A stretch of DNA of 64,000 nucleotides from an uncultured Thermoleophilia bacterium (GCA_963814545.1 CAWFDC010000008.1:39257-103256); one strand, 5' to 3'; shown: positions 9,214 to 64,000, counted from the first letter of the stretch. A program made the numbers and translations. Notes: generated by a model not told the origin, from the letters alone.

Positions 9214-10956
9214 ATGGGCGACCTCCTCCGCATCGACCTCACCACGGGCACCACACGCGAAGAGACGGTGCCTCCCGAGCTGATCCGCGACTTCATCGGG
9301 GGCAAGGGCCTCGGCACCTACTACCTCGGCCAGGAGGTCGCGCCCGACGTCGACCCCCTGAGCCCGCAGGCGAAGCTCATCTTCGTGGCCGGCCCCATGG
9401 CGGGCACCTCGATGCTGGGCAGCAACCGCTACGCTGTCTACTTCGCCTCGCCGCTCACCAACGCCTACTGCGAGGCCTACTCGGGCGGCAACCTCGCCCC
9501 GCAGTTCGCGAAGACGGGCTACAAGGTCGTGATCGTCGAGGGCAAGGCCGCGGGCCCGGTGTACCTCGAGGTCAGCGAGGCCGGGGCGCAGGTCCACAGC
9601 GCCGCCGACCTCTGGGGGCTCGACGCGTTCGAGGCCGAGGACAAGCTCCTCGAGCGCACGGCGCACAAGAAGGCCCAGGCCTGCGTCATCGGCCAGGCGG
9701 GCGAGAACCTCGTGCGCTTCGCCTGCGTCAACAACAACAAGTGGCACCAGCTCGGCCGCGGCGGCCCGGGCGCCGTCTTCGGCAGCAAGAACCTCAAGGG
9801 CATCGTCTGGCACGGCGACGAGAAGGTCGAGGTCGCGCGCCCCGACGAGTTCAAGGCGGTGGTCCGCGACATCGTCGCGCGCACCAAGGACGACCCCGGC
9901 GTCGCCGCCTACCAGCGCGGCGGCACCGTGAACATGGTGCGCCTCATGAACGGCAAGAACGCCTTCCCCACGCGCTACTGGCGCAAGGGCACCGTGGAGG
10001 GCTTCGAGGGTCTCACCACCGAGGCCATGCTCGAGAACTTCGGTACCAAGAACGAGGTCTGCCCTCCGTGCGTGATGAAGTGCGTCAAGCACAACACCGT
10101 CTTCGAGGGCCGGCACGAGGGGCTCGAGTGCGAGGGTCCCGAGTACGAGACCCTCTACGTGTTCGGCGGGCTCTGCGAGATCGTCGACTTCGCCGAGATC
10201 ATGTGGCTCAACGACCTCTGCGACCGCTGGGGCGTCGACACCATGAGCGCCGGCAACCTCTGCGCCCTGGCGATCGAAGCGTCGCAGCGCGGCCTGATCG
10301 ACGAGAAGATGGACTTCGCCGACCCCGACTGCGTGGCCGAGTTCCTGCGCAAGATGTGCTTCCGCGAGGGCATCGGCGACGTCTGGGCCGAGGGCATCCT
10401 CCGGGTCGAGAGGGAGTACGGCCTCGAGGGCATCGCCGTGCACGCCAAGGGCATGGAGCCGGCGGGCTACGATCCCCGCGTGATGAAGGGCATGGGCCTC
10501 GGCTTCGCCACCACGGCGCGCGGCGCCTGCCACCTGCGGGCGACGATGTACAAGCCCGAGCTCCTCGGTCTCGTCGACGCCCGCGCCTGGGAGGACAAGG
10601 CGGCGGTCTACTGCGACTGGGAGGACCGGCTGACGATCATGGACACGCTGATCTACTGCCGCTTCTACCGCGACCTCGTGCCGTGGCCGTACATCACCCA
10701 GGTCGTCAACGCCGCTGTGGGCACCGATCACTCCGAAGAAGACCTGCACGCCGTAGCCAACCGCATCATCACGATGACCCACGAGTACAACGCCGCGCGC
10801 GGCATCGGCCGTGAGTCCGAGAAGCTGCCGGACTGGGTCACCGAGAAGCCGATGGAGGACGAGAACGCCTTCGTCTTCCCGCAGAGCGAGATGGTCGGCA
10901 TGCTCACCGACTACTACCGTATCCGCGGCTGGGGCGAGTTGCCGGCGCTGACGTAG
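9214..10956 (+). CDS. aor: Aldehyde:ferredoxin oxidoreductase family (tungstopterin) enzyme
   Basis: GGKGLG, SPLT, GRGG.GAVFGSKNLKGI, CxxCxxxC, EGPEYET, CDRWGVDTMS, YDPR..KGMGL..RGACH. Confidence 0.92.
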   Translation: MGDLLRIDLTTGTTREETVPPELIRDFIGGKGLGTYYLGQEVAPDVDPLSPQAKLIFVAGPMAGTSMLGSNRYAVYFASPLTNAYCEAYSGGNLAPQFAKTGYKVVIVEGKAAGPVYLEVSEAGAQVHSAADLWGLDAFEAEDKLLERTAHKKAQACVIGQAGENLVRFACVNNNKWHQLGRGGPGAVFGSKNLKGIVWHGDEKVEVARPDEFKAVVRDIVARTKDDPGVAAYQRGGTVNMVRLMNGKNAFPTRYWRKGTVEGFEGLTTEAMLENFGTKNEVCPPCVMKCVKHNTVFEGRHEGLECEGPEYETLYVFGGLCEIVDFAEIMWLNDLCDRWGVDTMSAGNLCALAIEASQRGLIDEKMDFADPDCVAEFLRKMCFREGIGDVWAEGILRVEREYGLEGIAVHAKGMEPAGYDPRVMKGMGLGFATTARGACHLRATMYKPELLGLVDARAWEDKAAVYCDWEDRLTIMDTLIYCRFYRDLVPWPYITQVVNAAVGTDHSEEDLHAVANRIITMTHEYNAARGIGRESEKLPDWVTEKPMEDENAFVFPQSEMVGMLTDYYRIRGWGELPALT

Positions 10957-51530: not shown

Positions 51531-52178
51531 GTGGTGAGCGAGCACGAACCCATCGTCTACGCCCGCGAGGCGCTGCCCGTCTATCTCGACGACGCGGCGT
51601 CCGGCAAGCCGGCCCCCGGCGGGGGCAGCGTCTCGGCCTGCGTCGGCGCCCTCGGCGCGGCCCTGACCTCGATGGTCTGCAACCTGACCATCGGCAAGGA
51701 GAAGTTCGCCGAGGTCGAGGAGCGCATGAAGGGGGTGCTGGCCGCGTCGGAGGCCGCCCGCGCCCGGCTGCAGGAGCTGCTGCAGGAGGACACCACGGCC
51801 TACAACGGCGTGCTCCTCGCCTACCGTCTGCCCAAGGGCACCGACGAGGAGAAGGCGGCGCGCCACAAGGCGGTGCAGGACGGCCTCATCGTCGCCGCCG
51901 ACGTGCCGCTCCGGATCTGCCGCGTCGCCATCGAGGTCTGCCGCCTGGCCAAGGTGGCGGCCGATCTGGGCAACGCCAACGCCGTGACCGACGCCGGCAT
52001 CGGCGCCCTGCTCGGCGAGGCGGCGGCCGTCGGCGCCGCCCTCAACGTGCGTATCAATCTCGGCTCGATCGAGGACGAGGCGTACGTCGCCGCGGCGGCG
52101 GCCGAGATCGACGCCATCCTCGTCGAGGCCGCGGCGCTGCGCGCCGAGGTCCTCGCCACCACGCTCGCCAAGATCTGA
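51531..52178 (+). CDS. fchA: Methenyl-THF cyclohydrolase / cyclodeaminase family protein
   Basis: S..PAPGGGSVSA..GALGAAL..MV.NLT.GK, D..AY, GN.NA.TD, A.LNV.INL; lies between fhs and folD. Confidence 0.88.
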   Translation: MVSEHEPIVYAREALPVYLDDAASGKPAPGGGSVSACVGALGAALTSMVCNLTIGKEKFAEVEERMKGVLAASEAARARLQELLQEDTTAYNGVLLAYRLPKGTDEEKAARHKAVQDGLIVAADVPLRICRVAIEVCRLAKVAADLGNANAVTDAGIGALLGEAAAVGAALNVRINLGSIEDEAYVAAAAAEIDAILVEAAALRAEVLATTLAKI

Positions 52179-52193
52179 CACGAAAGGGACGTC

Positions 52194-53051
52194 ATGGCTG
52201 CACGCATCATCGACGGCAAGGCGATCGCGGAGATCGTCCGCGAGGAGATCCGCGCCGAGGTCGAGCGCCTCGCGGCGACCGGCGTCAAGCCCGGGGTCGC
52301 CACCATCCTCGTGGGCGACGACGGCGGGGCCCGCTTCTACCGCGGGCAGATCGAGAAGAACACGGCCACGGTCGGCCTCACCTACTTCAACCACGAGCTG
52401 CCGGCCGACACGAGCGAGGAGGACGTCCTCGAGCTCGTCGCGAAGCTGAACGCCGATCCGGCGGTGCACGGCATCCTCGCCCTCATGCCGATGGCCGCCC
52501 ACATCGACCAGAACAGGGTCTTCAACGCCCTGGCCCCCGAGAAGGACCTCGACTGCGTGAACCCCGCCAACATCGGTCACGTGCTGCTCGGCGACCAGCT
52601 CTTCGCCCCGGCGACGCCCTCGGCCTGCATCGAGATCCTCGACCGCGAGGGCGTGGAGCTGCAGGGCCTCGACGTGACGATCGTCAATCACTCGAACATC
52701 GTCGGCAAGCCGGTCGCGCTGCTCTGCCTCAACCGCAACGCCTCGGTGCACGTCGTGCACGTGTTCAGCAAGGACGTGCCCGCCGCCTGCCGCGCGGCCG
52801 ACGTGCTCATCTCGGCGGCTCCGGTGAAGGGCCTCATCAAGGCCGACATGGTCAAGCCGGGCGCGGTCGTCGTCGACGTGACCACGATCCGCGACGCCGA
52901 GGGCAAGCAGATCGGCAGCCTCGAGTTCGACGCCGTGTGCGAGGTCGCCGGCCACGTCACGCCCGTGCCGGGCGGCGTCGGCCCCGTCACCAACGTGATC
53001 CTGCTGAAGAACGCGCTCGCCGCCTGCAAGGCGCAGGTCGGCGCGGCGTGA
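52194..53051 (+). CDS. folD: Methylene-THF dehydrogenase (FolD family, divergent)
   Basis: IIDGKAIA, LN.DP.VHGI, KD.D, PATP, S.IVGKP, TPVPGGVGP.T. Confidence 0.92.
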   Translation: MAARIIDGKAIAEIVREEIRAEVERLAATGVKPGVATILVGDDGGARFYRGQIEKNTATVGLTYFNHELPADTSEEDVLELVAKLNADPAVHGILALMPMAAHIDQNRVFNALAPEKDLDCVNPANIGHVLLGDQLFAPATPSACIEILDREGVELQGLDVTIVNHSNIVGKPVALLCLNRNASVHVVHVFSKDVPAACRAADVLISAAPVKGLIKADMVKPGAVVVDVTTIRDAEGKQIGSLEFDAVCEVAGHVTPVPGGVGPVTNVILLKNALAACKAQVGAA

Positions 53052-53220
53052 GGCGAGAGCCGGCCGGCGCGACATGCGCCGCCGGCGCCGGCGTGGTTGA
53101 ATGGGCCGGCGGCTGCAAGGGGCGCGCCTCACGGGCGCGCCCGAGGACTGACGGCGTGAGGCGGAGTTGATGCGATGCCGCGGCGAGTGACACGTACCCC
53201 GGCGACCGCTCGCCCTCCCT

Positions 53221-53748
53221 GTGGGGGTCGACGGTCCGGACCTCGAGCGAGTCGGGGCGATCGTCGACGATCTCGACCCCGCCGGCAATCTGATCGCCGT
53301 TCTGCAGCGGCTGCAGCAGGAGTTCGGCTACCTGCCCGAGCCGGTGATCGACGAGCTCTCCCGGCTGAGCGGGGTGCCGGCGTCGCGCATCTACGGCGTC
53401 GTCACGTTCTACGCGCAGTTCTCGACGACGCCGAGCGGGCGGCACCGCGTCTGCGTCTGCCACGGCACCGCCTGTCACGTCGCCGGCGCCGGGCGGATCA
53501 CCGAGGCGCTCGAGCAGGAGCTCCACGTCGAGGACGGCGGCACGACCGGGGACATGGAGTTCACGCTCGACTCGGTGGCCTGCATGGGCGCCTGCTCGCA
53601 GGCGCCGGTCATGCGCGTCGACGACGACACCTACGGCAACCTGACGGCCGACCAGACGCGCACCATCGTGCGCGAGCTGCATCGCCGAGCTGGGTATCGA
53701 GGTCCGCCGGCCCGGCGCCGCCCCGGAGCCGGCCGCCGAGGGCGGTGA
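53221..53748 (+). CDS. NuoE/HydC-like [2Fe-2S] subunit (ends uncertain)
   Basis: LI.VLQ..Q..FGYLP, IYGVVTFYAQF, VCHGTACHVAG, ACMGACSQAP. Confidence 0.9.
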   Translation: MGVDGPDLERVGAIVDDLDPAGNLIAVLQRLQQEFGYLPEPVIDELSRLSGVPASRIYGVVTFYAQFSTTPSGRHRVCVCHGTACHVAGAGRITEALEQELHVEDGGTTGDMEFTLDSVACMGACSQAPVMRVDDDTYGNLTADQTRTIVRELHRRAGYRGPPARRRPGAGRRGR

Positions 53749-55643
53749 GCGGTCGTGAGCGCGCCGCCCCCGACGGCGGCGTGCGCGTCGAGGTCGCCGA
53801 CGACGCGGACGGCCGGCGCCGTATCTCCGTCTGCGCCGGCACCGCCTGCGTGTTCGCCGGCTCGCTCAAGATCCGCGACGCCTTCGTCGAGGAGGTGGAG
53901 GCCGCCGGTCTCGGCGACGAGGTCGACGTCCGGGTCAGCGGCTGTCACGGCCTCTGCTCGCAGGGCCCGCTCGCCGTGGTCTCCGGCGACGACACCTACT
54001 ATCCCCGGCTCAAGCTGCGCGACGTGAAGCGCGTCGTCGAGGAGCACCTCGTGGGCGGCACCCCGGTCGAGAAGCTCTTCTACGTCGACCCCGCCACCGG
54101 CGAGCGCGTGCACTGTGCCCACGACATCCCCTTCTACCGCCAGCAGCGGCGCATCGCCCTCCGTGACGTCGGCGTCATCGACCCGGAGAGCCTCGACGAG
54201 TTCCTCGCGCGGGGCGGCTACGAGGCCGCGCGCAAGGCGCTCACCACGATGACGCCGGAGGCGATCATCGACGAGATCCTCGCCTCGGGGCTGCGCGGCC
54301 GCGGCGGCGCCGGGTTCCCGACGGGGATGAAGTGGAAGTTCGCCCGCCAGTCGCCGGGCGACGTGAAGTACGTCATCTGCAACGGCGACGAGGGCGACCC
54401 CGGCGCCTTCATGGACGCCTCGATCATGGACGGCGACCCGCACGCCGTGCTCGAGGGCATGCTGATCGCCTCCTACGCCATCGGTGCGCGCGAGGGGTAC
54501 ATCTACGTGCGCGCCGAGTACCCGCTGGCCGTCCGGCGCCTGCGGCTCGCGATCGCCGAGGCCGAGGGGCGCGGCCTGCTCGGCGACGACCTCTTCGGCT
54601 CGGGCTGGGGCTTCCACCTCAAGATCAAGGAGGGGGCGGGCGCCTTCGTCTGCGGCGAGGAGACGGCGCTGATCGCCTCCATCGAGGGTCGTCGCGGCAT
54701 GCCGCGCACGCGGCCGCCGTTCCCGGCCGTGCGCGGCCTCTGGGGCAAGCCGACCAACATCAACAACGTCGAGACCTACGCCAACGTGTCCTGGATCATC
54801 GCCAACGGGTCCGCTGCGTACGCCGCCGTGGGCTCGGAGACGTGCAAGGGCACCAAGGCCTTCAGCCTGGCCGGCAAGATCGTCAACGGCGGCCTCGCCG
54901 AGGTGCCCATGGGCTCCACCCTGCGCCACGTGATCTTCGACGTCGGCGGCGGGGTCAAGGACGGCAAGGCCTTCAAGGCGGTCCAGCTCGGCGGGCCCTC
55001 CGGCGGCTGCGTGCCGGCGGCGCTGCTCGACACGCCGGTCGACTACGAGAGTCTCGCCGCCACGGGGGCGATCATGGGCTCCGGCGGCATGGTGGTCGCC
55101 GACGAGACCACCTGCATGGTCGACCTCGCGCGTTACTTCCTCGAGTTCACCCAGAGGGAGAGCTGCGGCAAGTGCGTCCCCTGCCGGCTCGGCACCAAGC
55201 GCATGCTCGAGATCCTCGAGCGCATCACCGCCGGCGAGGGCGAGGACGGCGACATCGAGCGCCTCGAGAAGCTGGCCACGACGATCAAGAAGACGAGCTT
55301 GTGCGGCCTCGGCCAGACGGCGCCGAACCCCGTCCTCACGACGATCCGCTACTTCAGGGACGAGTACGTCGCCCACATCGACGAGCACCGCTGCCCGGCC
55401 TGCGCCTGCGACGCGCTCATCGCCTTCTCGATCGACCCCGATCTGTGCACCGGCTGCACGCTGTGCGCGAAGAAGTGCCCGGTCGGGGCGATCACCGGCG
55501 ACAAGAAGCAGGCGCACCGCATCGACCAGTCACTCTGCGTGCGCTGTGACTCGTGCCGCGCCGCCTGCCGCTTCGACGCGGTCAAGGTGGTCAGCGGCCC
55601 CGAGCAGATCGCCGCCGCGCTGCGGGCCGAGGCCGGCGACTGA
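53745..55643 (+). CDS. NuoF/HydB-like NADH-binding flavoprotein with extra Fe-S domains
   Basis: N-terminal thioredoxin-like [2Fe-2S] (C.GT.C..GC.G.C), GLRGRGGAGFPTG, NGDEGDPGAFMD, GAFVCGEETAL, GGPSGG, ESCGKCVPCR.G, two C-terminal CxxCxxCxxxC motifs. Confidence 0.93.
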   Translation: MSGRERAAPDGGVRVEVADDADGRRRISVCAGTACVFAGSLKIRDAFVEEVEAAGLGDEVDVRVSGCHGLCSQGPLAVVSGDDTYYPRLKLRDVKRVVEEHLVGGTPVEKLFYVDPATGERVHCAHDIPFYRQQRRIALRDVGVIDPESLDEFLARGGYEAARKALTTMTPEAIIDEILASGLRGRGGAGFPTGMKWKFARQSPGDVKYVICNGDEGDPGAFMDASIMDGDPHAVLEGMLIASYAIGAREGYIYVRAEYPLAVRRLRLAIAEAEGRGLLGDDLFGSGWGFHLKIKEGAGAFVCGEETALIASIEGRRGMPRTRPPFPAVRGLWGKPTNINNVETYANVSWIIANGSAAYAAVGSETCKGTKAFSLAGKIVNGGLAEVPMGSTLRHVIFDVGGGVKDGKAFKAVQLGGPSGGCVPAALLDTPVDYESLAATGAIMGSGGMVVADETTCMVDLARYFLEFTQRESCGKCVPCRLGTKRMLEILERITAGEGEDGDIERLEKLATTIKKTSLCGLGQTAPNPVLTTIRYFRDEYVAHIDEHRCPACACDALIAFSIDPDLCTGCTLCAKKCPVGAITGDKKQAHRIDQSLCVRCDSCRAACRFDAVKVVSGPEQIAAALRAEAGD

Positions 55644-56268
55644 CGGGGCGCGCGGCCGGGGCCTCCGGGCCCCGCCCGCGCGCCGCCCGTCGGGCGCCGT
55701 CCCGGCGTCCCGCCCCGGCTCCGCCTCGGTCCCGGACCGCGCTCGGCCCGGCGCGCCGGGCCGGCGCGTCGCCGCGGCCCGGGACGGCGCCACGCGTCCG
55801 GGCCCATCCTCGCGGCTCGCCCGCCCTTACTCTGCCGGTGCGCTTTCGAGCGACCGCGCGGGTCGCAGCGCCGGACCCCCGCGGCTCGTGCCTGCGGATC
55901 TCGCAGCCGGGGGCCACGCGCGGCATCCTCACCACGGCGTCTGGCCTTCGGACATGAGGCCTCGAGGTCTGCGAATATGGCAAGCCGTACGGTCAGCTAG
56001 CGGTCGTCGTGCGGCGACAGTCTCTCGGTGATGGCGAGAGCTATGCGACTGGAGCTGCGTTTTCACTACGACTTAGTCTCCGAGATCCAGCGAGTATTCG
56101 AAGCAGATTCTCACTTGCGCCGACGCCGCGAAGCTGTAGGATGGGCGCGCTTCGTCAACGGAGCGGATCTGCCGGCTCGAGCCAGGGAGGTGGCGTCAGG
56201 AAACGAGCGACTGGGGGGGGAGCCGCCCGCACGCGGGCGGCGGAATGTCATTCGAAAGGAGGCACAGG

Positions 56269-57894
56269 GTGGCGGAAGAACTCGCGTTCGCCCGCAAAGC
56301 GAGCGGCCTTGTCCGCGGCCTGTCGATGACCGACGCGTTCGCCGTCGGCTTCATGAACCAGGGCATCACACCGAGCATCTGGACGATGATCACGTGGGGG
56401 CTGGGGACCTACCTCACCGGCAACCTCTTCTGGGCCACGGTCATCTCGCTGCTCATGGTCGGCTTCGGCTTCCCGCTGGTGTGGGGCATCCTGTCGGGCA
56501 GCATGCCGCGGTCGGGCGGCGAGTACATCTACAACTCGCGCATCATCAACCCGATCGTGGCCATCGCGGAGAGCTTCGGCAACGCCTTCGTGATGATCTT
56601 CTGGGTCTACATCCTGGCGCCGTGGGTCGCCGACCCCGGTCTCGTGATCATCGCCGAGTACCAGGGTTGGGACTGGCTCTACAACGTCGACAGCGGTGAA
56701 TTCTTCGGGCTGTTCTCTTACGAGTGGGGCGTCTTCATCGTGGCGACGATCACCAACGTCATCGCCTTCCTCACCATCGTCTTCGGGGTCAAGATCTTCG
56801 CCCTCATCCAGAAGGGCGTCATGATCTTCGCCCTCGGCGGCGCGGCCGTCGTCACCGGCGCGCTCACCTTCACGAGCAAGGCGAACATCGCCGAGAGTTG
56901 GGACGCGTTCGCCGCCGAGTACGACTCTCTCACCTACGCCGAGGTGGTGCCCGCGGTCTCCGCGGCGATCGGCGAGGCGGTGCCGACCAGCTCGACGCTG
57001 TACGGCACGCTGGGCGTGATGGTCGCGGGCTCGTGGCTCTTCGCCTACGCCTACTTCTGCGTGTTCGTGGCGGGCGAGGTGAAGCGGCCGGACAAGACCC
57101 TGATCGCCGCCAACTTCGTCGCCGTCCTCGTGCCGGCGCTGCTCATGATCTGGACCTCGCTCGCGATGTACCGGGTCATGGACTTCGAGTTCATCTCGGC
57201 CACGGCATGGATCGACAACAACGGCGGCATCGACGGCTATACCTTGCCCTTCCTGCCCAGCTACATGAGCCTGGCGTACATCGCCCACTCGAACTGGTTC
57301 GTCGCCCTGGCGGCGGGCGGCTCGTTCATGCTCTTCTGCTTCTGGTACGTGGCGCTGTCGTATCCTCGCCTTCCCGCGGATCATCTTCGCCTGGGGCATG
57401 GACCGCATGGGCCCGAAGTGGTTCACCGACATCAGCCCGCGCTGGGCGTCGCCGGTCAAGAACTACATCCTCTGCTTCGTGCTCTGCCAGGCCGCCATCG
57501 CGCTGTACACCTTCTGGATCGGCGAGTACATGCAGGGCCTGACCGTCACCGGCATGGAGATCGTCTCCGTGTGGGGTGTCACGACGATCGCGGCCCTGGT
57601 CTTCCCCTACATGAAGCGCTCCAAGGGCATCTGGGACTCCTCGCCGTACAAGAGCTGGAAGTTCCTCGGCGTGCCGCTCGTCTCGTGGGGCGCCTCGTGT
57701 CGCTCGTCTACCTCGGCATCCTGTTCTACTTCCTCATCATGACCGAGGAGATGCGCGATTCGAACCGCGACTCGTGGATCCTGTACGCGGTCGTCTGGGT
57801 CATCGGCATCATCTGGTACTTCTTCTGGACCGCCCGCAGCAAGAAGGTGGGCGTCGACGTGTCCATGACCTACGGGGAGCTGCCGCCGGAGTGA
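56269..57894 (+). CDS. APC-superfamily amino-acid/polyamine permease, paralog 1 (compensating indels near 57363 and 57697)
   Basis: FARKASGLVR, SMPRSGGEYIYNSR, AGEVK, RIIFAWGMDR, about 12 hydrophobic segments; AAAGGAGG RBS. Confidence 0.9.
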   Translation: MAEELAFARKASGLVRGLSMTDAFAVGFMNQGITPSIWTMITWGLGTYLTGNLFWATVISLLMVGFGFPLVWGILSGSMPRSGGEYIYNSRIINPIVAIAESFGNAFVMIFWVYILAPWVADPGLVIIAEYQGWDWLYNVDSGEFFGLFSYEWGVFIVATITNVIAFLTIVFGVKIFALIQKGVMIFALGGAAVVTGALTFTSKANIAESWDAFAAEYDSLTYAEVVPAVSAAIGEAVPTSSTLYGTLGVMVAGSWLFAYAYFCVFVAGEVKRPDKTLIAANFVAVLVPALLMIWTSLAMYRVMDFEFISATAWIDNNGGIDGYTLPFLPSYMSLAYIAHSNWFVALAAGGSFMLFCFWYVALSYPRLPADHLRLGHGPHGPEVVHRHQPALGVAGQELHPLLRALPGRHRAVHLLDRRVHAGPDRHRHGDRLRVGCHDDRGPGLPLHEALQGHLGLLAVQELEVPRRAARLVGRLVSLVYLGILFYFLIMTEEMRDSNRDSWILYAVVWVIGIIWYFFWTARSKKVGVDVSMTYGELPPE

Positions 57895-57918
57895 TCCGGG
57901 GCGCTCTTCAAGCTCGAC

Positions 57919-57951
57919 GGGCGGGGCGGCCGGTGGCCGCCCCGCCCTTTT
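57919..57951 (+). terminator. Intrinsic terminator after APC permease 1
   Basis: GGGCGGGGCGGCC-ggt-GGCCGCCCGCCC followed by a T-run. Confidence 0.75.
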
Positions 57952-58114
57952 GCCGCCTCGGTCACTGCAACGCGTTCCGCTGTCGTTTCGCGACACGTGA
58001 GACGGCACATCTTTGCCGAATCCGACGGATTTCGTGCCGCGCGGCTTGACTTCGCGCTTCGCCGGGTGTCGTAATAACGCGTCAGTCAGGGTCGGCGAGG
58101 ACCGGGGGGTCTGG

Positions 58115-58606
58115 GTGCCGTTCAGTCTCGATACCATCGACCGCAAGATCGTCTCACTCCTGCTCGAGGACGGGCGCATCTCCTCGGCCGAGATCACGCG
58201 GCGCATCGGGCACGTCTCCGAGCGCGCCGTGCGCTACCGCATCGAGCGCCTCATCCGCTCCGGCGTCATCCGCATCAGCGCCATCGTCAACCCGCAGGCC
58301 GTCGGCTTCAGCATCATCGGCGACGTGCTGGTCGACGTGGCGCCCGGCAAGCTGCAGGACGTCGCCGCCCAGCTCGTCGAGTTCGACACGGTCAGTTACG
58401 TGGCCGGCTCCGTGGGTGAGGGCGATCTGAGCCTGCAGGTGTACGCGCGGGACACCGAGGAGCTCCTGCGCTTCGTCAATGAGGTCATCGGCAAGATCCC
58501 CGGGGTCACGCGTACCAAGACCTACATGGTGCCGTGGAAGCTCAAGGACGTGTACGAATGGCACGTTCCCGTCGAGGCTGCCGAAGAAGGGAGGGCGACA
58601 GGCTGA
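58115..58606 (+). CDS. Lrp/AsnC-family transcriptional regulator
   Basis: LD.IDRKI..LL.EDGR, VSE.AV.YRI.RL...GVI, G..DL, I..IPGV..T.T. Confidence 0.92.
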   Translation: MPFSLDTIDRKIVSLLLEDGRISSAEITRRIGHVSERAVRYRIERLIRSGVIRISAIVNPQAVGFSIIGDVLVDVAPGKLQDVAAQLVEFDTVSYVAGSVGEGDLSLQVYARDTEELLRFVNEVIGKIPGVTRTKTYMVPWKLKDVYEWHVPVEAAEEGRATG

Positions 58607-58700
58607 ACCACTTGTCCTGCGGTCTACGTCCTGGTCACACCGCCACGGCCGGCGCACAGGCGCCGTGCAGGCGTGACCGAGAACCGAAGAAGGGGGAATT

Positions 58701-60342
58701 GTGGCCGAAGAGCTAGCCTTTGCCCGCAAGGCGAGTGGCCTCGTCCGGGGCCTCTCGATGTGGGACGCGTTCGGCGTTGGCTTCATGAACCAGGGGCTCA
58801 CGCCCTCGATCTGGGTCATGACCAGCCTCGGCGTCGGCATCTACCTTGGCGGCAACCTGATCTGGGCGACCATCGTCTCGGTGATCCTCGCCGGCATCGG
58901 CTTCCCGCTCGTCTGGGGCATCCTCGGCGGCTCGATGCCGCGGTCCGGCGGCGAGTACATCTACAACTCGCGCATCATCCATCCCATCGTCGGTATCGGC
59001 GAGAGCTTCGGCAACGCCTTCGTGTGGATCATGTGGATCTACGTGCTGGCGCCGTGGCTGGCCGACCCCGGGTTCGTCATGCTCTCCCAGTTCATGGACT
59101 GGAGCTGGGCCTACAACGCTGAGGCCGACACCGTCATCGGTCTCTCGTACGCCTGGGGTGTGTTCGTCATCGCGACGATCGCCAACATCATCGCCTTCCT
59201 CTTCGTGGTGTTCGGCATCAAGTGGTTCGCGCGTATCCAGAAGGTCGTCATGATCTTCGGCATCGGCGGGTGCATCGTGCTGCTCGCCGGCATCTCGATG
59301 TACAACCAGGCCGACTTCCTGGCGGGCTGGAACGAGATCGCCGCGACCTACGGCTCGCTCAACTACGACGAGTTCCTGGCCGCGGCGAGCGCCGCGGCGG
59401 AGTCGCCCATGCCGACGACGTGGAACTGGTCCGACACCCTCGGCGTGATGGTCGCCGGCTCGTGGCTCTTCGCCTACAGCTACTGCATCACGTTCATCGC
59501 CGGCGAGGTCAAGCGGCCCGACAAGACCATCATCCTGTCGAACCTCTTCGCCATCCTCGTCCCCGGCGCCTTCATGCTCTGGGCCGCGATCGCTCTGTAC
59601 CACATGGTGCCGTTCGACTTCTTCTCGGCGACCCAGTTCGTCGACAACGCCGGGACCGACGTGATCGAGGGCTACACGGTGCCCTGGTCGACGCACTTCC
59701 TCGGTCTGCTGGCGATGGTGAACCAGAACAAGCCGCTGCTCTTCATCTCGGTCATGTCGTTCCTCGCCTTCGACCTCTGGTGGGTGGCGCTCTCGTACCT
59801 GGCCTTCCCGCGCATCATCTTCGCCTGGGGCATGGACCGCATGGGCCCGAAGTGGTTCACCGACATCAACCCGCGTTTCGCGAGCCCGGTGAAGAACCAC
59901 GTGCTCTGCCTCGTCCTCGGCCAGATCGGTATCGCGCTCTACGTCTTCTGGCAGAACGAGACGATGCAGGGACTCGCGGTCACGGCGATGGAGATCTTCT
60001 CGGTCTTCGGCGTCACGGCCATCGCCGCTCTGATCTTCCCGTACGTGAAGAAGGCGCGCGGCATCTGGGACGCTTCCCCGTACCGCAACTGGAAGCTCGC
60101 CGGCATCCCGGTCGTCACGCTGGGCGCCATCGTCCAGCTGGTCTACCTGGGCATCCTGGCCTACTACTTCTTCTTCATGCCCGACCCGGCGAAGCGGCTG
60201 GAGGGCTTCACGACCAGCACGATCGATGCTCATCGTCGTCACTTGGATCGTCGGCATCGGTTGGTACTTCTTCTGGAGCTGGCGCAGCAAGGCCGTCGGC
60301 GTGGATACGTCGATGACCTACGGCGAGTTGCCGCCGGAGTGA
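58701..60342 (+). CDS. APC-superfamily permease, paralog 2 (+1 frameshift near 60225)
   Basis: Same motifs as paralog 1; the shifted frame restores the last TM helix and the TYGELPPE* end. Confidence 0.9.
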
Positions 60343-60357
60343 GCAGGTAATACCAAT

Positions 60358-60396
60358 GCGGGGAGCGGGAGCGTCGCTCCCGCTCCCCGCGCTTTT
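60358..60396 (+). terminator. Terminator-like hairpin between permease 2 and the phosphoesterase
   Basis: GCGGGGAGCGGGAGC-gtc-GCTCCCGCTCCCCGC-gcTTTT. Confidence 0.65.
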
Positions 60397-60407
60397 CGGA
60401 GGTGTCA

Positions 60408-61340
60408 ATGATCAAGCTGTTCTTCGTCACCGACATCCACGGGTCCAACGTCTGCTACCGCAAGTTCCTCAACGCTCTGCCGATCTACGGGGTCGACGTC
60501 GCCATCCTGCTCGGCGACCTCACGGGCAAGGTGCTCGTGCCGCTCGTCGCCAAGGGGAGCGAGCAGTGGGAGTGCACTCTCATGGGGCAGTACCGCGAGA
60601 TCAACGGGCAGGAGGAGCTCGCGGCGATCAAGAAGACCACGGAGAACGCGGGGTACTACTGGGTGCACCAGAGCCGTGAGGAGTTCGACGACACCCGCGC
60701 CGACCCCGCCAAGATCGACGCCCTCTTCAAGCGTCTCGTGTTCGATCGCGTGCAGGAGTGGCTCGACCTCGCCGACGAGCGCCTCGAGGGCAAGCCCTTC
60801 CAGATGTACATGGCGCCCGGCAACGACGACTGGTTCGTGATCGACGACATGATCGACGCGGCCAAGCTCGTGCACCCGTGCGACCGCCGCGTCGTCGACC
60901 TCGCCGGCCACGAGATGATCACCAGCTCGGCCTCCAACCCGACGCCGTGGGACACCCCGCGCGAGATGAGCGAGGAGGACCTCGAGAAGCACCTGCGCGA
61001 GCTCTGCGGCCTGGTCAAGAACTACGAGACGTCGATCTTCAACTTCCACGTGCCGCCGCACGGGTACTCGCTCGACCTCTGCCCGAAGCTCGACGAGAAC
61101 CTCACCATGGCCGCCGACGAGAAGATCCACGCCGGCTCGCTCGGCGCCAAGAAGGTGATCGAGGAGTTCCAGCCCCTGCTCGGGCTGCACGGGCACATCC
61201 ACGAGTCGCGCGGCGCCCAGAAGGCCAAGCGCACGCTGCTCATCAACCCCGGCAGCGAGTACTCGGAGGGCATCCTCAAGGGCGTCCTCATCATGCTTGA
61301 CAAGAAGAAGGTGAAGGACTACGTGTTCACCTCCGGGTGA
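60408..61340 (+). CDS. Calcineurin-like metallophosphoesterase
   Basis: DIHGS, GDLTG, PGNDD, HVPP, HGHIHES, NPGS motifs; GGAGG RBS. Confidence 0.9.
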   Translation: MIKLFFVTDIHGSNVCYRKFLNALPIYGVDVAILLGDLTGKVLVPLVAKGSEQWECTLMGQYREINGQEELAAIKKTTENAGYYWVHQSREEFDDTRADPAKIDALFKRLVFDRVQEWLDLADERLEGKPFQMYMAPGNDDWFVIDDMIDAAKLVHPCDRRVVDLAGHEMITSSASNPTPWDTPREMSEEDLEKHLRELCGLVKNYETSIFNFHVPPHGYSLDLCPKLDENLTMAADEKIHAGSLGAKKVIEEFQPLLGLHGHIHESRGAQKAKRTLLINPGSEYSEGILKGVLIMLDKKKVKDYVFTSG

Positions 61341-61398
61341 GCCGTCTCCCCGCCGTACCGCGACCGTGTCGGAACTGAGTCTGAAAGGGGGTCGATAG

Positions 61399-62208
61399 AT
61401 GGCGAAGGAGTTCATCCTCCCGAAGGACATCCCACTCGACCAGTACCCCAAGCCCGAGGTCTTCCTCGAAGAAGGCAAGCATCTGGCGGTGGAGGGGCAG
61501 AAGCGCGGCATCAACCTGCGCGTCATGGGCCCGCTCGCCCTGCACTACTACTTCCCGGACCAGGTCGACCTGTACGCCAAGCTCGAGCGCCTCGGCGACC
61601 GCTACTTCACCGACATCGACTACGCGTCGTACGGCAAGACGCGCAAGAAGATGATCGACTTCATGAAGGACATGGGCTACGAGGCCGACCTGCACACGAT
61701 GATGGTCTCGGGCAAGACCCGCCACATCTACTTCGGCGGCGCCGTCCCCATGATCGACGTGTTCTTCGACAAGCTCAGCTACTGTCACGAGGTCGACTAC
61801 GAGGGCCGTCTCGACCTCGATCCCTACAGCGTCTCGCAGGCCGATATCCTGCTGCAGAAGCTGCAGATCTGGGAGATCAACGACAAGGACCTCAAGGACA
61901 TCGAGTACCTGTTCACGGTGGCCGACTTCGGCGAGGACGACGAGAAGAAGGTCAACGTCGGCTACGTCGCCCGGCGTTTCGCCGACGACTGGGGCTTCTG
62001 GTACACCGGCACCACCAACCTCGACCGCGTGAAGACGCACGTCGACACGGTGGCCGTGCTGAGCGACGACCAGAAGGCCAAGGTCAAGCAGGTGGCCGAC
62101 AACGTGCGGGCGCGCATCGACGAGGAGCCCAAGACCAAGGGCTGGAACAAGCGCGCCAAGAAGGGGACCGACAAGATCTGGTACAACCAGGGCTTCTCCG
62201 ACTGGTGA
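61399..62208 (+). CDS. Uncharacterised protein with nucleotidyltransferase-like motifs
   Basis: Coding-like codon bias and AAAGGGGG RBS; hhG (LRVMGPLA), DhD (FTDIDY), downstream hDhF (IDVFFD), K....KD..D; the fold is inferred. Confidence 0.65.
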   Translation: MAKEFILPKDIPLDQYPKPEVFLEEGKHLAVEGQKRGINLRVMGPLALHYYFPDQVDLYAKLERLGDRYFTDIDYASYGKTRKKMIDFMKDMGYEADLHTMMVSGKTRHIYFGGAVPMIDVFFDKLSYCHEVDYEGRLDLDPYSVSQADILLQKLQIWEINDKDLKDIEYLFTVADFGEDDEKKVNVGYVARRFADDWGFWYTGTTNLDRVKTHVDTVAVLSDDQKAKVKQVADNVRARIDEEPKTKGWNKRAKKGTDKIWYNQGFSDW

Positions 62209-62304
62209 GTGAGGCCGCATGACGGCCTTCTCGACAGGCTGTGGCGCGGGGCGACGCCGTCGGCGGGCGCCCCGCGCCACACGCGTCTGCGGGGCCGGCC
62301 GCGG

Positions 62305-64000
62305 GTGAGCGCTCGCGACGCCGGCCCGGGGCGTGACCTCACGCCGCTCTTCGACCCGCGGTCGATCGCCGTCGTCGGCGCCTCGAACGATGCGTCGAAG
62401 TGGGGCGGCGACGTGGCCGCGCGCCTGGCGCGCGGCCACGACCGTCGCCGCCTGTTCTTCGTCAACCACCGCGGCGGACTCGTGCAGGGGCGCGAGTCGT
62501 ACCGCTCGCTGCGCGAGCTGCCCGAAGCGCCGGACATGGTGATCCTCGCCGTGCCGGCGCAGGCCTTCGAGGCGGCGCTCGACGACGGGCTCGCCGTCGG
62601 CGCGCGCGCCTTCGTCGGGATCCTCGCCGGTCTCGGCGAGACCGGGGCCGGCGGCAAGGCCCGCGAGCGCGCCGCCGTCGCCCGCCTGCGCGCCGCCGGC
62701 GCGGTCATGATCGGGCCGAACTGCATGGGCGTCGCCGATACGGCGAGCGGTCTGCAGGCGGTGGCGTATCTCGATGTCCCGCCCGGCGGACTCGCCTTCG
62801 TCTCCCAGAGCGGTGGCCTCGGTGAGGAGATGGTGATGCGCGCGACCGAGCAGGGGGTCGGCTTCTCGCGCTACGTGACCCTGGGCAACCAGGCCGACCT
62901 CACCATCACCGAGGTCCTCGAGTCCCTCGTCGACCACGAGCCTGCGCGGGCGGTGGCAGTGTACGCCGAGGACCTCGGCGACGGGCGCGCCTTCGCGCGG
63001 GCCGCCCGTGACCTGGTCGCCGCGGGCCGCCCCGTCGTGCTGCTGAGTCCAGGACGGAGCGCGGCCAGCGCGCGCGTCGCCCGTTCGCACACCGGCTCCC
63101 TGGCTCCCGACGCGGCCGTGCTGGACGCCGCCTGTCACGCCGCCGGCGTGGTCCGTGTGGCCACGATCGGCGAGCTCTTCGACGCCGCCGTGTGCCTGCT
63201 GCCCGGGCGCCGGATGCGCGGGTGCCGCCTCGCCGTCGTCTCCGACGGCGGCGGCCACGGCGGCCTCGCCGCCGACGTCGCGGCCGCGGCGGGCCTCGAC
63301 GTCGGCCCGCTGGGGCCGGAGGTCGTCGCCGGCGTGCGCGCGGCCCTGGCGACGAGCGTCGGCGAGAACCCCTTCGACTTCGCCATCGGCACGGTGGAAC
63401 CGCAGGCGTACGGCGCGGTCGTCGATGCCCTCGCCGAGGCCAACGGCGTCGACGCCGTGCTCGCCGTCGGCCAGCTCGGCTACTGGGGTGCGCGTTTCGC
63501 CCACTTCACCGAGCAGGTCGCGGCGGAGCGCGACGGTGCGCGGAGGATCGGCGCCGCCGCGGCGCGCTCGGGCACGCCGGTCGTCGTCTGCAGCACCTAC
63601 CCAAGATCTCCGGCCGCGGCCGCGCTGCGCGAGAGCGGCGTGCCCGTGTACCACGAGACCGACGCCGCGCTGACCGCCCTGCGTCACCTGGTGGAGGTGC
63701 ACGAAGCCGAGGGGCGCCTCGAAGAGGAGCGGGAAGGGAGTCGCGATGACGGTCTGCCCGAGGTGCCGCCGCCGGCGCCGCCGCTCGGCGGTGTGGTCGC
63801 GGCAGCGGCAGCGGCGCCGCCGGTGTGCGCCAGCGCCGCCGCCGCGGTCGCGGGCGACTACTGGCTGGCGCGCGAGGCGCTCACGGCGGCCGGCCTCGAG
63901 TCGGCCGGCGCCCGCCGCGCCCTCGACGGTGAGGGCGCCGTGACCGCCGCCGCCGATCTCGGGTACCCGGTCGCCCTCAAGGCTCTCGGTCTGCTGCACA
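62305..64000 (+). CDS. Acetate/acyl-CoA ligase (ADP-forming) family protein, 3'-truncated by window edge
   Basis: Frame open to the window end: LFDPRSIAVVGAS, KWG, GPNCMG, FVSQSGG, LGNQAD, SHTGSLA, GGG.G, ENP.D, GYPVALK. Confidence 0.9.
   Translation, partial: MSARDAGPGRDLTPLFDPRSIAVVGASNDASKWGGDVAARLARGHDRRRLFFVNHRGGLVQGRESYRSLRELPEAPDMVILAVPAQAFEAALDDGLAVGARAFVGILAGLGETGAGGKARERAAVARLRAAGAVMIGPNCMGVADTASGLQAVAYLDVPPGGLAFVSQSGGLGEEMVMRATEQGVGFSRYVTLGNQADLTITEVLESLVDHEPARAVAVYAEDLGDGRAFARAARDLVAAGRPVVLLSPGRSAASARVARSHTGSLAPDAAVLDAACHAAGVVRVATIGELFDAAVCLLPGRRMRGCRLAVVSDGGGHGGLAADVAAAAGLDVGPLGPEVVAGVRAALATSVGENPFDFAIGTVEPQAYGAVVDALAEANGVDAVLAVGQLGYWGARFAHFTEQVAAERDGARRIGAAAARSGTPVVVCSTYPRSPAAAALRESGVPVYHETDAALTALRHLVEVHEAEGRLEEEREGSRDDGLPEVPPPAPPLGGVVAAAAAAPPVCASAAAAVAGDYWLAREALTAAGLESAGARRALDGEGAVTAAADLGYPVALKALGLLH

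Follow-up and report, generated by a model that had tools for sequence, protein, structure and literature searches.

The DNA analyzed here (the window) is a 64,000-nt stretch from an uncultured Thermoleophilia bacterium, corresponding to contig C8:39257-103256 of a 2.7-Mb draft genome (22 contigs, 76.6% complete, GC content about 0.71). Public records give the label Thermoleophilia to close homologues of its proteins. At 56269-62208, it carries an operon of five genes in one orientation, which encode a permease (perm1), an Lrp/AsnC-family regulator, a second permease (perm2), a metallophosphoesterase (MPE), and a nucleotidyltransferase-fold protein that we call p5. A preliminary description of this DNA had singled out these five co-oriented genes as a candidate undescribed system, and every element that it listed is there. 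Three of them, a permease of this particular subfamily, the MPE, and p5, recur together across genomes and very probably form one functional unit. The features of the operon, in window coordinates, are as follows:

55644-56268, + strand: upstream untranslated region of 625 nt before perm1, the presumed promoter/operator, with a lower-GC stretch at 56000-56200
56269-57894, + strand: perm1, a permease of a distinct APC subfamily, matched by the subfamily hidden Markov model (HMM); frame broken as assembled
56287-56316, + strand: perm1 N-terminal motif F-A-R-K-A-S-G-L-V-R, which holds Ser12, the family-invariant Ser/Thr position
57850-57891, + strand: perm1 C-terminal tail with the E-[IL]-P-x-E terminus
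58115-58606, + strand: Lrp/AsnC-family transcription regulator; frame open from 58013, likely start GTG at 58115 (uncertain)
58701-60342, + strand: perm2, a paralogue of perm1, scoring 57 bits against PF13520 (AA_permease_2; cut-off 27); frame broken as assembled
58719-58748, + strand: perm2 copy of the N-terminal motif, the same as in perm1
60298-60339, + strand: perm2 C-terminal tail GVDTSMTYGELPPE, with the family-wide E-[IL]-P-x-E terminus
60358-60390, + strand: perfect 15-bp, G+C-rich hairpin between perm2 and the MPE gene
60408-61340, + strand: MPE of the aq_1956/TT1561 (COG2129) type, 310 aa, scoring 26.4 bits against PF00149 (cut-off 21.5)
61399-62208, + strand: p5, 269 aa, with a nucleotidyltransferase fold in its predicted structure and a helical C-terminal domain

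The unit emerged from three sets of loci of increasing breadth. The first comprised 80 close loci around p5 homologues of 67-98% identity, almost all from Thermoleophilia or Actinomycetota metagenome-assembled genomes (MAGs). An MPE match was present in 77 of the 80, and the MPE gene lay directly upstream of p5 on the same strand in 66 of the 74 loci with at least 1.2 kb of upstream sequence. A permease was found in 64 of the 65 loci with at least 3 kb upstream. Among the 56 with at least 6.5 kb upstream, 42 had an Lrp gene, and the number of permeases was one in 34, two in 20, and three in 2. The second set comprised 40 diverse loci, picked from p5 matches in 401 Actinomycetota genomes with two unpublished genomes left out. 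All 40 had HMM matches to p5, MPE, and permease inside one 9.4-16.8 kb stretch, in at least four kinds of gene order (p5-MPE-permease, permease-MPE-p5, permease-p5-MPE, and split orientations). An Lrp homologue was present in 5 of these 40 loci, and IclR-type regulators were present in 7. The five-part system of the preliminary description therefore stands for its permease/MPE/p5 core and falls for the Lrp gene and the twin permease (at least two permeases in 22 of the 56 close loci), which are lineage-specific additions rather than core components. In the third set, metagenome contigs of at least 5 kb around more distant relatives (GC content 0.40-0.69; relatives of P0225, which is 28% identical to p5), all three genes were present on 36 of 49 contigs.

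Co-occurrence at the level of whole genomes, which had been proposed as a check on the system, was likewise strict. Across the 401 Actinomycetota genomes, p5 was detected in 52 (E ≤ 1e-10), MPE in 50 (E ≤ 1e-40), and the permease in 52 (E ≤ 1e-50), with thresholds that we chose ourselves and a permease profile built from 40 triad permeases. All three families occurred in an identical set of 50 genomes, such that all 50 MPE genomes were in both other lists. The four remaining genomes held one family each, with p5 in G271 and G310 and the permease in G280 and G395, and at least three of these four matches are fragments. The match in G271 contains a stop codon, and both permease matches are partial, in genomes that are 57% and 88% complete. 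Two of the genomes counted here, G018 and G120, are unpublished; when both are removed, p5 is found in 50, MPE in 48, and the permease in 50 of 399 genomes, with 48 shared. Related genomes in this sample are not independent. Still, the spread of the unit inside families is patchy (p5 in 17/31 genomes of f19, 8/22 of f22, and 5/26 of f9), and the three genes are nonetheless found together. The preliminary description knew of no characterized example, and our search of the literature on the gene cluster, its enzyme families, and AMPylation of APC tails likewise found no description of the unit.

Two further loci (L062 and L065), whose MPE and p5 genes are 72-77% identical to those of the window, lie on contigs binned as Syntrophobacteraceae/Deltaproteobacteria. 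We rejected a spread of the unit into Desulfobacterota, as only 2 of the 301 genomes searched from that phylum had a match, and these two loci are therefore best regarded as rare or recent transfers or binning errors. Taxon rows in the ESM Atlas give an unverified lead to archaeal carriers.

The predicted structure of p5 supports a minimal nucleotidyltransferase fold of the Pol-beta type, with its acidic triad intact, in agreement with what had been read from its motifs at the outset. The AlphaFold2 model, built on 74 sequences, had a predicted local distance difference test (pLDDT) score of 95.9. In an exhaustive structural search, the top match was MenT1 (8an4; Z 11.5, 170 residues aligned), with ANT(2'')-Ia (4xje; Z 11.2, root-mean-square deviation [rmsd] 3.3 over 154 residues), a fungal nucleotidyltransferase-like protein (5uvd; Z 10.5), LnuA (4wh5; Z 9.7, rmsd 3.3 over 141 residues), TglT (9.5), JHP933 (9.4), MenT4 (8.8), and TM1012 (8.3) also matching. 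Polymerase beta and terminal transferases reached Z 4-5.5. With Foldseek, all 25 of the 25 best-ranked matches were nucleotidyltransferases, at weak E-values (best 8.4e-4). Among 74 homologues, G44, D72-x-D74, and D120/D124 were each at least 90% conserved, the residue following G44 was variable and neither S nor G, and the conserved basic residues were R41, R68, R108, R137, K154, and K163. Judging from its acidic triad, p5 looks active, and nucleotidyl transfer is its predicted reaction.

By sequence, p5 belongs to a large family with little annotation. It had no Pfam match, and no curated family model covers it. The nearest model is PF14907 (NTP_transf_5), which 44 of the 74 p5 relatives touch at E ≤ 1 (best 2.1e-8); p5 itself scores 13 bits (E 0.077) against a cut-off of 31.2, as a distant relative would. 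A sequence search against the PDB returned a chance filaggrin match alone. Grouped at 90% identity, the family has 951 clusters, and at 50% identity (E ≤ 0.001) it has 1476; the close homologues of p5 are all named "hypothetical protein" in their sources. A search for longer, fused forms recovered a single 485-aa protein and no MPE-p5 fusion. Separately, one 396-aa protein (P0246) joins a p5-family domain to an N-terminal MarR/IclR-like winged helix. Such a fusion, of which this is the one example, may reflect an additional role of the fold in ligand sensing or two genes joined during gene calling.

The best fold matches raise the question of whether p5 is a toxin of the MenT/AbiEii kind or an antibiotic-modifying enzyme of the ANT/Lnu kind, with an incidental linkage to a transporter. 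MenT1, ANT(2'')-Ia, TglT, and LnuA all point in this direction, and 5 of the 74 p5 relatives touch PF08843 (AbiEii) and 2 touch PF10706, all at E ≤ 1. However, no AbiEi/MenA-type antitoxin gene is adjacent, no AbiEi-type domain was found in the window proteins, and the constant partners of p5 are a permease and a phosphoesterase (40/40 loci). Codon usage is also native, and the neighborhoods are catabolic. We therefore consider a role in defense or resistance very improbable.

The MPE carries every expected metal motif (DxH, GD, GNDD, NxH, and GHxH), as the preliminary description had noted, and these are invariant or nearly so in 41 homologues. Residues D9, H11, D37, N139, D140, D141, H214, H263, and H265 are invariant in all 41. 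The third motif is GNDD in place of GNH[DE], and about 95 residues separate the GD motif (II) from it (III). These motifs support a catalytically intact enzyme. The structural model (pLDDT 95.4) was closest to aq_1956 (2yvt; Z 23.9) and TT1561 (1uf3; Z 22.9), with MPPED2 (Z 20.4), Mre11, Rv0805 (Z 17.6), and GpdQ (2dxl; Z 17.1) as the next neighbors, and a profile search of the PDB returned 2yvt (E 8.7e-5), then YfcE and Rv0805 at about 0.01. Metallophosphoesterases of the GNxD type, such as YfcE and MJ0936, prefer diesters.

A transferase beside a phosphodiesterase could also suggest that p5 makes a small nucleotide messenger, that MPE degrades it, and that the messenger gates the permease or a regulator. 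The pairing of a synthase with a phosphodiesterase is typical of nucleotide messengers, and the cyclic-nucleotide phosphodiesterases Rv0805 and MPPED2 are among the structural neighbors of MPE. Yet p5 resembles minimal transferases, whereas cyclic-oligonucleotide synthases match it weakly (CdnE, Z 3.6; a cGAS-like receptor, Z 3.6), and the unit contains no conserved receptor domain. A messenger system therefore appears improbable.

In corrected frames, perm1 and perm2 share about 61% identity (313 of 513 aligned residues, in three pieces), and their first 20 residues are identical (VAEELAFARKASGLVRGLSM; 19 in the preliminary description), which makes them the close paralogues that they had been taken for. 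Their identical N-termini follow from a motif, F-x-R-[KR]-A-[ST]-G-L-x-[RK], that is common to the whole permease subfamily. Over 66 diverse full-length permeases, aligned across 537 model columns and 19-26% identical to the window type, R8, S/T11 (38 S and 28 T), G12, and R/K15 were present in 66/66, and the invariant Ser/Thr sits in a basic setting. The opposite end is conserved as well. Every triad permease has a conserved C-terminal tail, which takes the form GVD(V/T)SMTYGELPPE in the window. The 80 close loci contain 89 tails ending in PPE (90 matches, one of which is a chance frame), and related forms, for example QGIDLxxxFxEIP(P/V/I/E)(E/D), were seen in the diverse loci and on metagenome contigs. 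In the 66-permease alignment, P535 was present in 66/66, G524 in 65/66, and E533 in 54/66, and the last eight columns had a mean information of 2.92 bits vs. 1.79 over all columns. Presumably, both ends are cytoplasmic, as expected from the positive-inside rule and APC topology, and would face the same side as the two enzymes. A sequence search with the permease against the PDB gave no match.

Taken together, we favor a reading in which the permease is reversibly nucleotidylated by a dedicated enzyme pair, and we assign this a probability of roughly one in three (0.35). We favor it because the two enzymes stay with one permease subfamily across changing contexts and because the cytoplasmic motifs of that subfamily are invariant. 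Of the mechanisms offered in the preliminary description, the invariance of these motifs likewise favors the first, reversible attachment of a nucleoside monophosphate (NMP). In this scheme, the permease would bring a nitrogen compound into the cell, an N-methylated amine or an amino alcohol being the probable substrate. The acceptor of the NMP transferred by p5 would be the Ser/Thr that is invariant in the N-terminal F-x-R-[KR]-A-[ST]-G-L motif (Ser12 here), perhaps with the E-[IL]-P-x-E terminus of the permease as a docking site, and MPE would hydrolyze the phosphodiester to restore the permease. Uptake would thereby be switched post-translationally, with Lrp or another local regulator setting transcription and the intergenic hairpin keeping the enzymes at lower, catalytic levels than the permease. 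Proteins are known targets of Pol-beta-type transferases, as GlnD, GlnE, DrrA, and MntA all nucleotidylate proteins. A complex prediction with MPE, p5, and a 38-residue permease tail scored 0.02 (mark 0.32) and was used neither for nor against this reading. A somewhat less probable extension of the same idea is that transporters are controlled by a self-contained, portable NMP switch that has been plugged into varied nitrogen-compound catabolic operons of bacteria, with unverified leads to archaea.

Several observations weigh against nucleotidylation of the permease. Among solved structures, those closest to p5 belong to enzymes whose substrates are tRNA (MenT1) or small molecules (ANT(2'')-Ia and LnuA) rather than proteins, and to our knowledge, no metallophosphoesterase removes a nucleotide from a protein. 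The conserved N-terminal stretch is partly a generic element that precedes the first transmembrane segment of APC transporters, and its invariance may be due to structure. In the C-terminal tail, no position carries an invariant hydroxyl residue across the 66 permeases. In addition, the unit is not complete everywhere in the host genome. Three of its six p5-family copies stand alone, without MPE or permease, and are about 30-34% identical:

C10:162429-163607: solitary p5 paralogue
C14:121628-123313: solitary p5 paralogue
C20:151657-152544: solitary p5 paralogue

One permease copy is also solitary (C11:35732-37441), with the same ELPPE tail and no MPE nearby, although it might be served in trans by the enzyme pair of the window.

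The genomic context of the unit pointed consistently to one area of metabolism. Directly ahead of the operon, at 51531-55643, lie genes for an FTCD_C cyclodeaminase, FolD, and NuoE/NuoF-like iron-sulfur flavoproteins, and this gene order is kept in most close loci, which suggests that the permease unit is linked to tetrahydrofolate one-carbon oxidation. Among the 40 diverse loci, the most frequent neighbors were DAO-FAO_M-GCV_T proteins of the dimethylglycine/sarcosine oxidase type (12), ABC ATPases (11), and aldehyde dehydrogenases (10). IclR and MTHFR (7 each), AllG and OpuAC (6 each), and DAO, Lrp, and a glutamine-synthetase-like protein (5 each) were less frequent. What these neighborhoods share is the breakdown of nitrogen compounds, N-methylated amines among them, with one-carbon units bound to tetrahydrofolate. 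The enzyme pair thus remains constant with its permease subfamily while the catabolic neighbors vary between loci, and the 40 diverse loci revealed no conserved fourth gene.

The same theme appeared in a second locus of the host genome. Contig C5:143450-155800 carries two further triads in the order p5-MPE-permease-MPE-permease-p5, whose genes are 25-41% identical to those of the window, except for the last p5, at 76%. This locus lies directly downstream of genes for an MTTB-family methyltransferase, a corrinoid (B12-binding) protein, and an MtmB-family methyltransferase, and a DeoR regulator and a transaldolase-like gene come after it.

These contexts also lend weight to a metabolic explanation, which we rank as nearly as likely as nucleotidylation of the permease. 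Here, the permease would import a nitrogen compound that is cationic and carries a hydroxyl group, for example choline, dimethylaminoethanol, ethanolamine, or a methylated amine related to them. The cargo itself would then be O-nucleotidylated by p5, for activation or trapping, and MPE would cleave the resulting phosphodiester, either directly or after a step such as demethylation. Among the structural neighbors, ANT(2'')-Ia and LnuA nucleotidylate hydroxyls of amino compounds, and GpdQ, Rv0805, and MPPED2 are small-molecule diesterases. The surrounding genes are rich in choline, betaine, methylamine, and one-carbon functions. There is also a precedent in the MthK/MthB reactions of Eubacterium limosum, where the hydroxyl of choline is activated ahead of N-demethylation (PMC12155760). 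However, nucleotidylation followed by hydrolysis would be futile without an intermediate step, for which a conserved fourth gene is missing. Moreover, the catabolic neighbors differ among loci while the enzyme pair is constant, and modification of the cargo would leave the invariant cytoplasmic motifs of the permease unexplained. We therefore regard modification of the cargo as possible, while continuing to give precedence to modification of the permease.

Of the five genes, four have a Shine-Dalgarno-like sequence ahead of the start codon (perm1 GAAAGGAGG, perm2 GAAGGGGGA, MPE GGAGG, and p5 GAAAGGGGG), in line with the strong ribosome-binding sites described earlier for most of the genes. A promoter scan found no sigma-70-like promoter in 55644-56268, and an Rfam scan of 55400-62400 at E ≤ 1 gave four chance-level matches, with no riboswitch and none of the four within 55644-56268. 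Downstream of the hairpin at 60358-60390 come a short run of T residues and the ribosome-binding site of the MPE gene. A comparable hairpin was present in all 29 of the 29 close loci in which the spacer, from permease stop to MPE start, could be delimited, and compensatory changes were seen in 11 of 13 pairs across 30 aligned spacers (including L009-L079). This hairpin may be a partial terminator or a 3' stabilizer of the permease message, and it possibly sets the ratio of permease to enzymes.

The composition of the locus did not point to a foreign origin. GC content was 0.61-0.67 across 56.0-62.2 kb, with a value of 0.63 for the local dip, vs. 0.70-0.78 in the flanks. We considered whether this dip marked a foreign island and ruled this out, as third-position GC is host-like (0.98 in the MPE gene and 0.96 in the p5 gene vs. 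0.976 in host folD). Because of this match, the dip can be attributed to proteins rich in Lys, Asp, Tyr, and Phe rather than to foreign DNA. The two enzymes do have the Lys-rich composition that was first remarked on, with 7.4% Lys in MPE and 10.0% in p5 vs. 0.5% in the downstream acyl-CoA synthetase. This uncultured Thermoleophilia bacterium carries the locus as a native operon. Its regulator has both an AsnC-type helix-turn-helix and a RAM domain (PF01037, 53.8 bits; PF13412 [HTH_24], 43 bits), with no NCBIfam equivalog at cut-off, and an NCBIfam search of all five proteins added nothing specific. Elsewhere in the window, a gene for a tungsten-type aldehyde:ferredoxin oxidoreductase (AFOR_N plus AFOR_C) lies at 9214-10953 and is unrelated to the permease unit.

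The two permease genes contain three single-base frame breaks that the preliminary description had not noticed, placed by comparison with intact orthologues. In perm1, a +1 insertion near 57357-57363 is compensated by a -1 deletion near 57692-57696, leaving 110 codons out of frame in between. In perm2, a +1 insertion near 60221-60228 puts the true C-terminus (...MTYGELPPE, stop 60340-60342) in another frame. The lack of a Pfam match for perm1 as assembled is due to these breaks, and the subfamily HMM does match it. We compared each site with contigs of relatives from four public runs (X1, X2, X3, and X17), in pieces 90-99% identical to the window. At 57363, relatives had one base fewer in X3 (13.1 of 13.1 depth) and X17 (4.53 of 4.53). 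At 57692-57696, they had one base more in X1 (4.7 of 4.7), X2 (5.43 of 5.43), X3 (8.39 of 13.5), and X17 (4.53 of 4.53). At 60228, they had one base fewer in X1 (18.7 of 18.7) and X3 (9.47 of 9.47) and in 0 of 3.44 depth in X17. Single-base indels also occur elsewhere in the draft genome, in p5 and permease copies on C5 and p5 copies on C14 and C20 (broken stretches at C5:154986-155787, C14:122297-122938, and C20:151446-152544), and fragmented genes are common among the long-read-style MAG loci of relatives as well. Because the contigs of relatives lack these indels and other genes of the draft are broken too, the three breaks are probably assembly errors, with the limit that the contigs compared come from relatives and not from the strain itself. 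For the same reasons, we judged it unlikely that the permeases are pseudogenes.

The unit is common: roughly an eighth of the Actinomycetota genomes sampled have it, and it is present on many metagenome contigs of varied GC content. Still, no member of any of its three families has been studied. The unit belongs to pathways for choline, betaine, methylamine, and other nitrogen compounds in soil and peat bacteria and therefore has a bearing on carbon and nitrogen turnover in these environments. Our results suggest that it represents a new way of controlling or processing the uptake of nitrogen compounds. Modification of the permease by the two enzymes would amount to a new principle for controlling transporters and would give metallophosphoesterases a new role, whereas modification of the cargo would add a new activation chemistry to amine catabolism.

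Comparison with known systems showed partial likenesses for each component. Like p5, ANT(2'')-Ia and LnuA have a minimal nucleotidyltransferase fold with an acidic triad, but they are 13-15% identical to p5, which has an extra conserved helical C-terminal domain. Moreover, p5 is encoded natively on the chromosome and is linked to a permease and a phosphoesterase rather than to resistance elements. The MenT/AbiEii/TglT toxins (DUF1814 clade) include the best structural match, MenT1, whereas p5 has no antitoxin partner and falls below the cut-off of PF14907, itself an uncharacterized family. For MPE, aq_1956 (2yvt) and TT1561 (1uf3) are 14-16% identical, with chains of 257 and 228 aa vs. 310 aa. 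Both are structural-genomics proteins deposited under those names alone, and we know of no function for either.

The closest metabolic counterpart is the choline:tetrahydrofolate system MthK/MthB/MthC/MthA of Eubacterium limosum, in which the hydroxyl of an amino alcohol is activated before corrinoid-dependent N-demethylation (PMC12155760). The triads on C5, likewise, adjoin MTTB, MtmB, and corrinoid-protein genes. Unlike p5, this system relies on activation by a kinase rather than by a nucleotidyltransferase, and the abstract describing it names no metallophosphoesterase or dedicated APC permease (PMC12155760). Our working analogy is the AmtB-GlnK-GlnD system, in which a nitrogen-compound transporter is likewise associated with a Pol-beta-type nucleotidyltransferase and hydrolytic reversal. 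By contrast, a PII protein is not part of our unit, and p5, at 269 aa, lacks HD and ACT domains in a scan of the five proteins. Instead, the proposed eraser is a separate calcineurin-like phosphoesterase, and the proposed target is the transporter itself.

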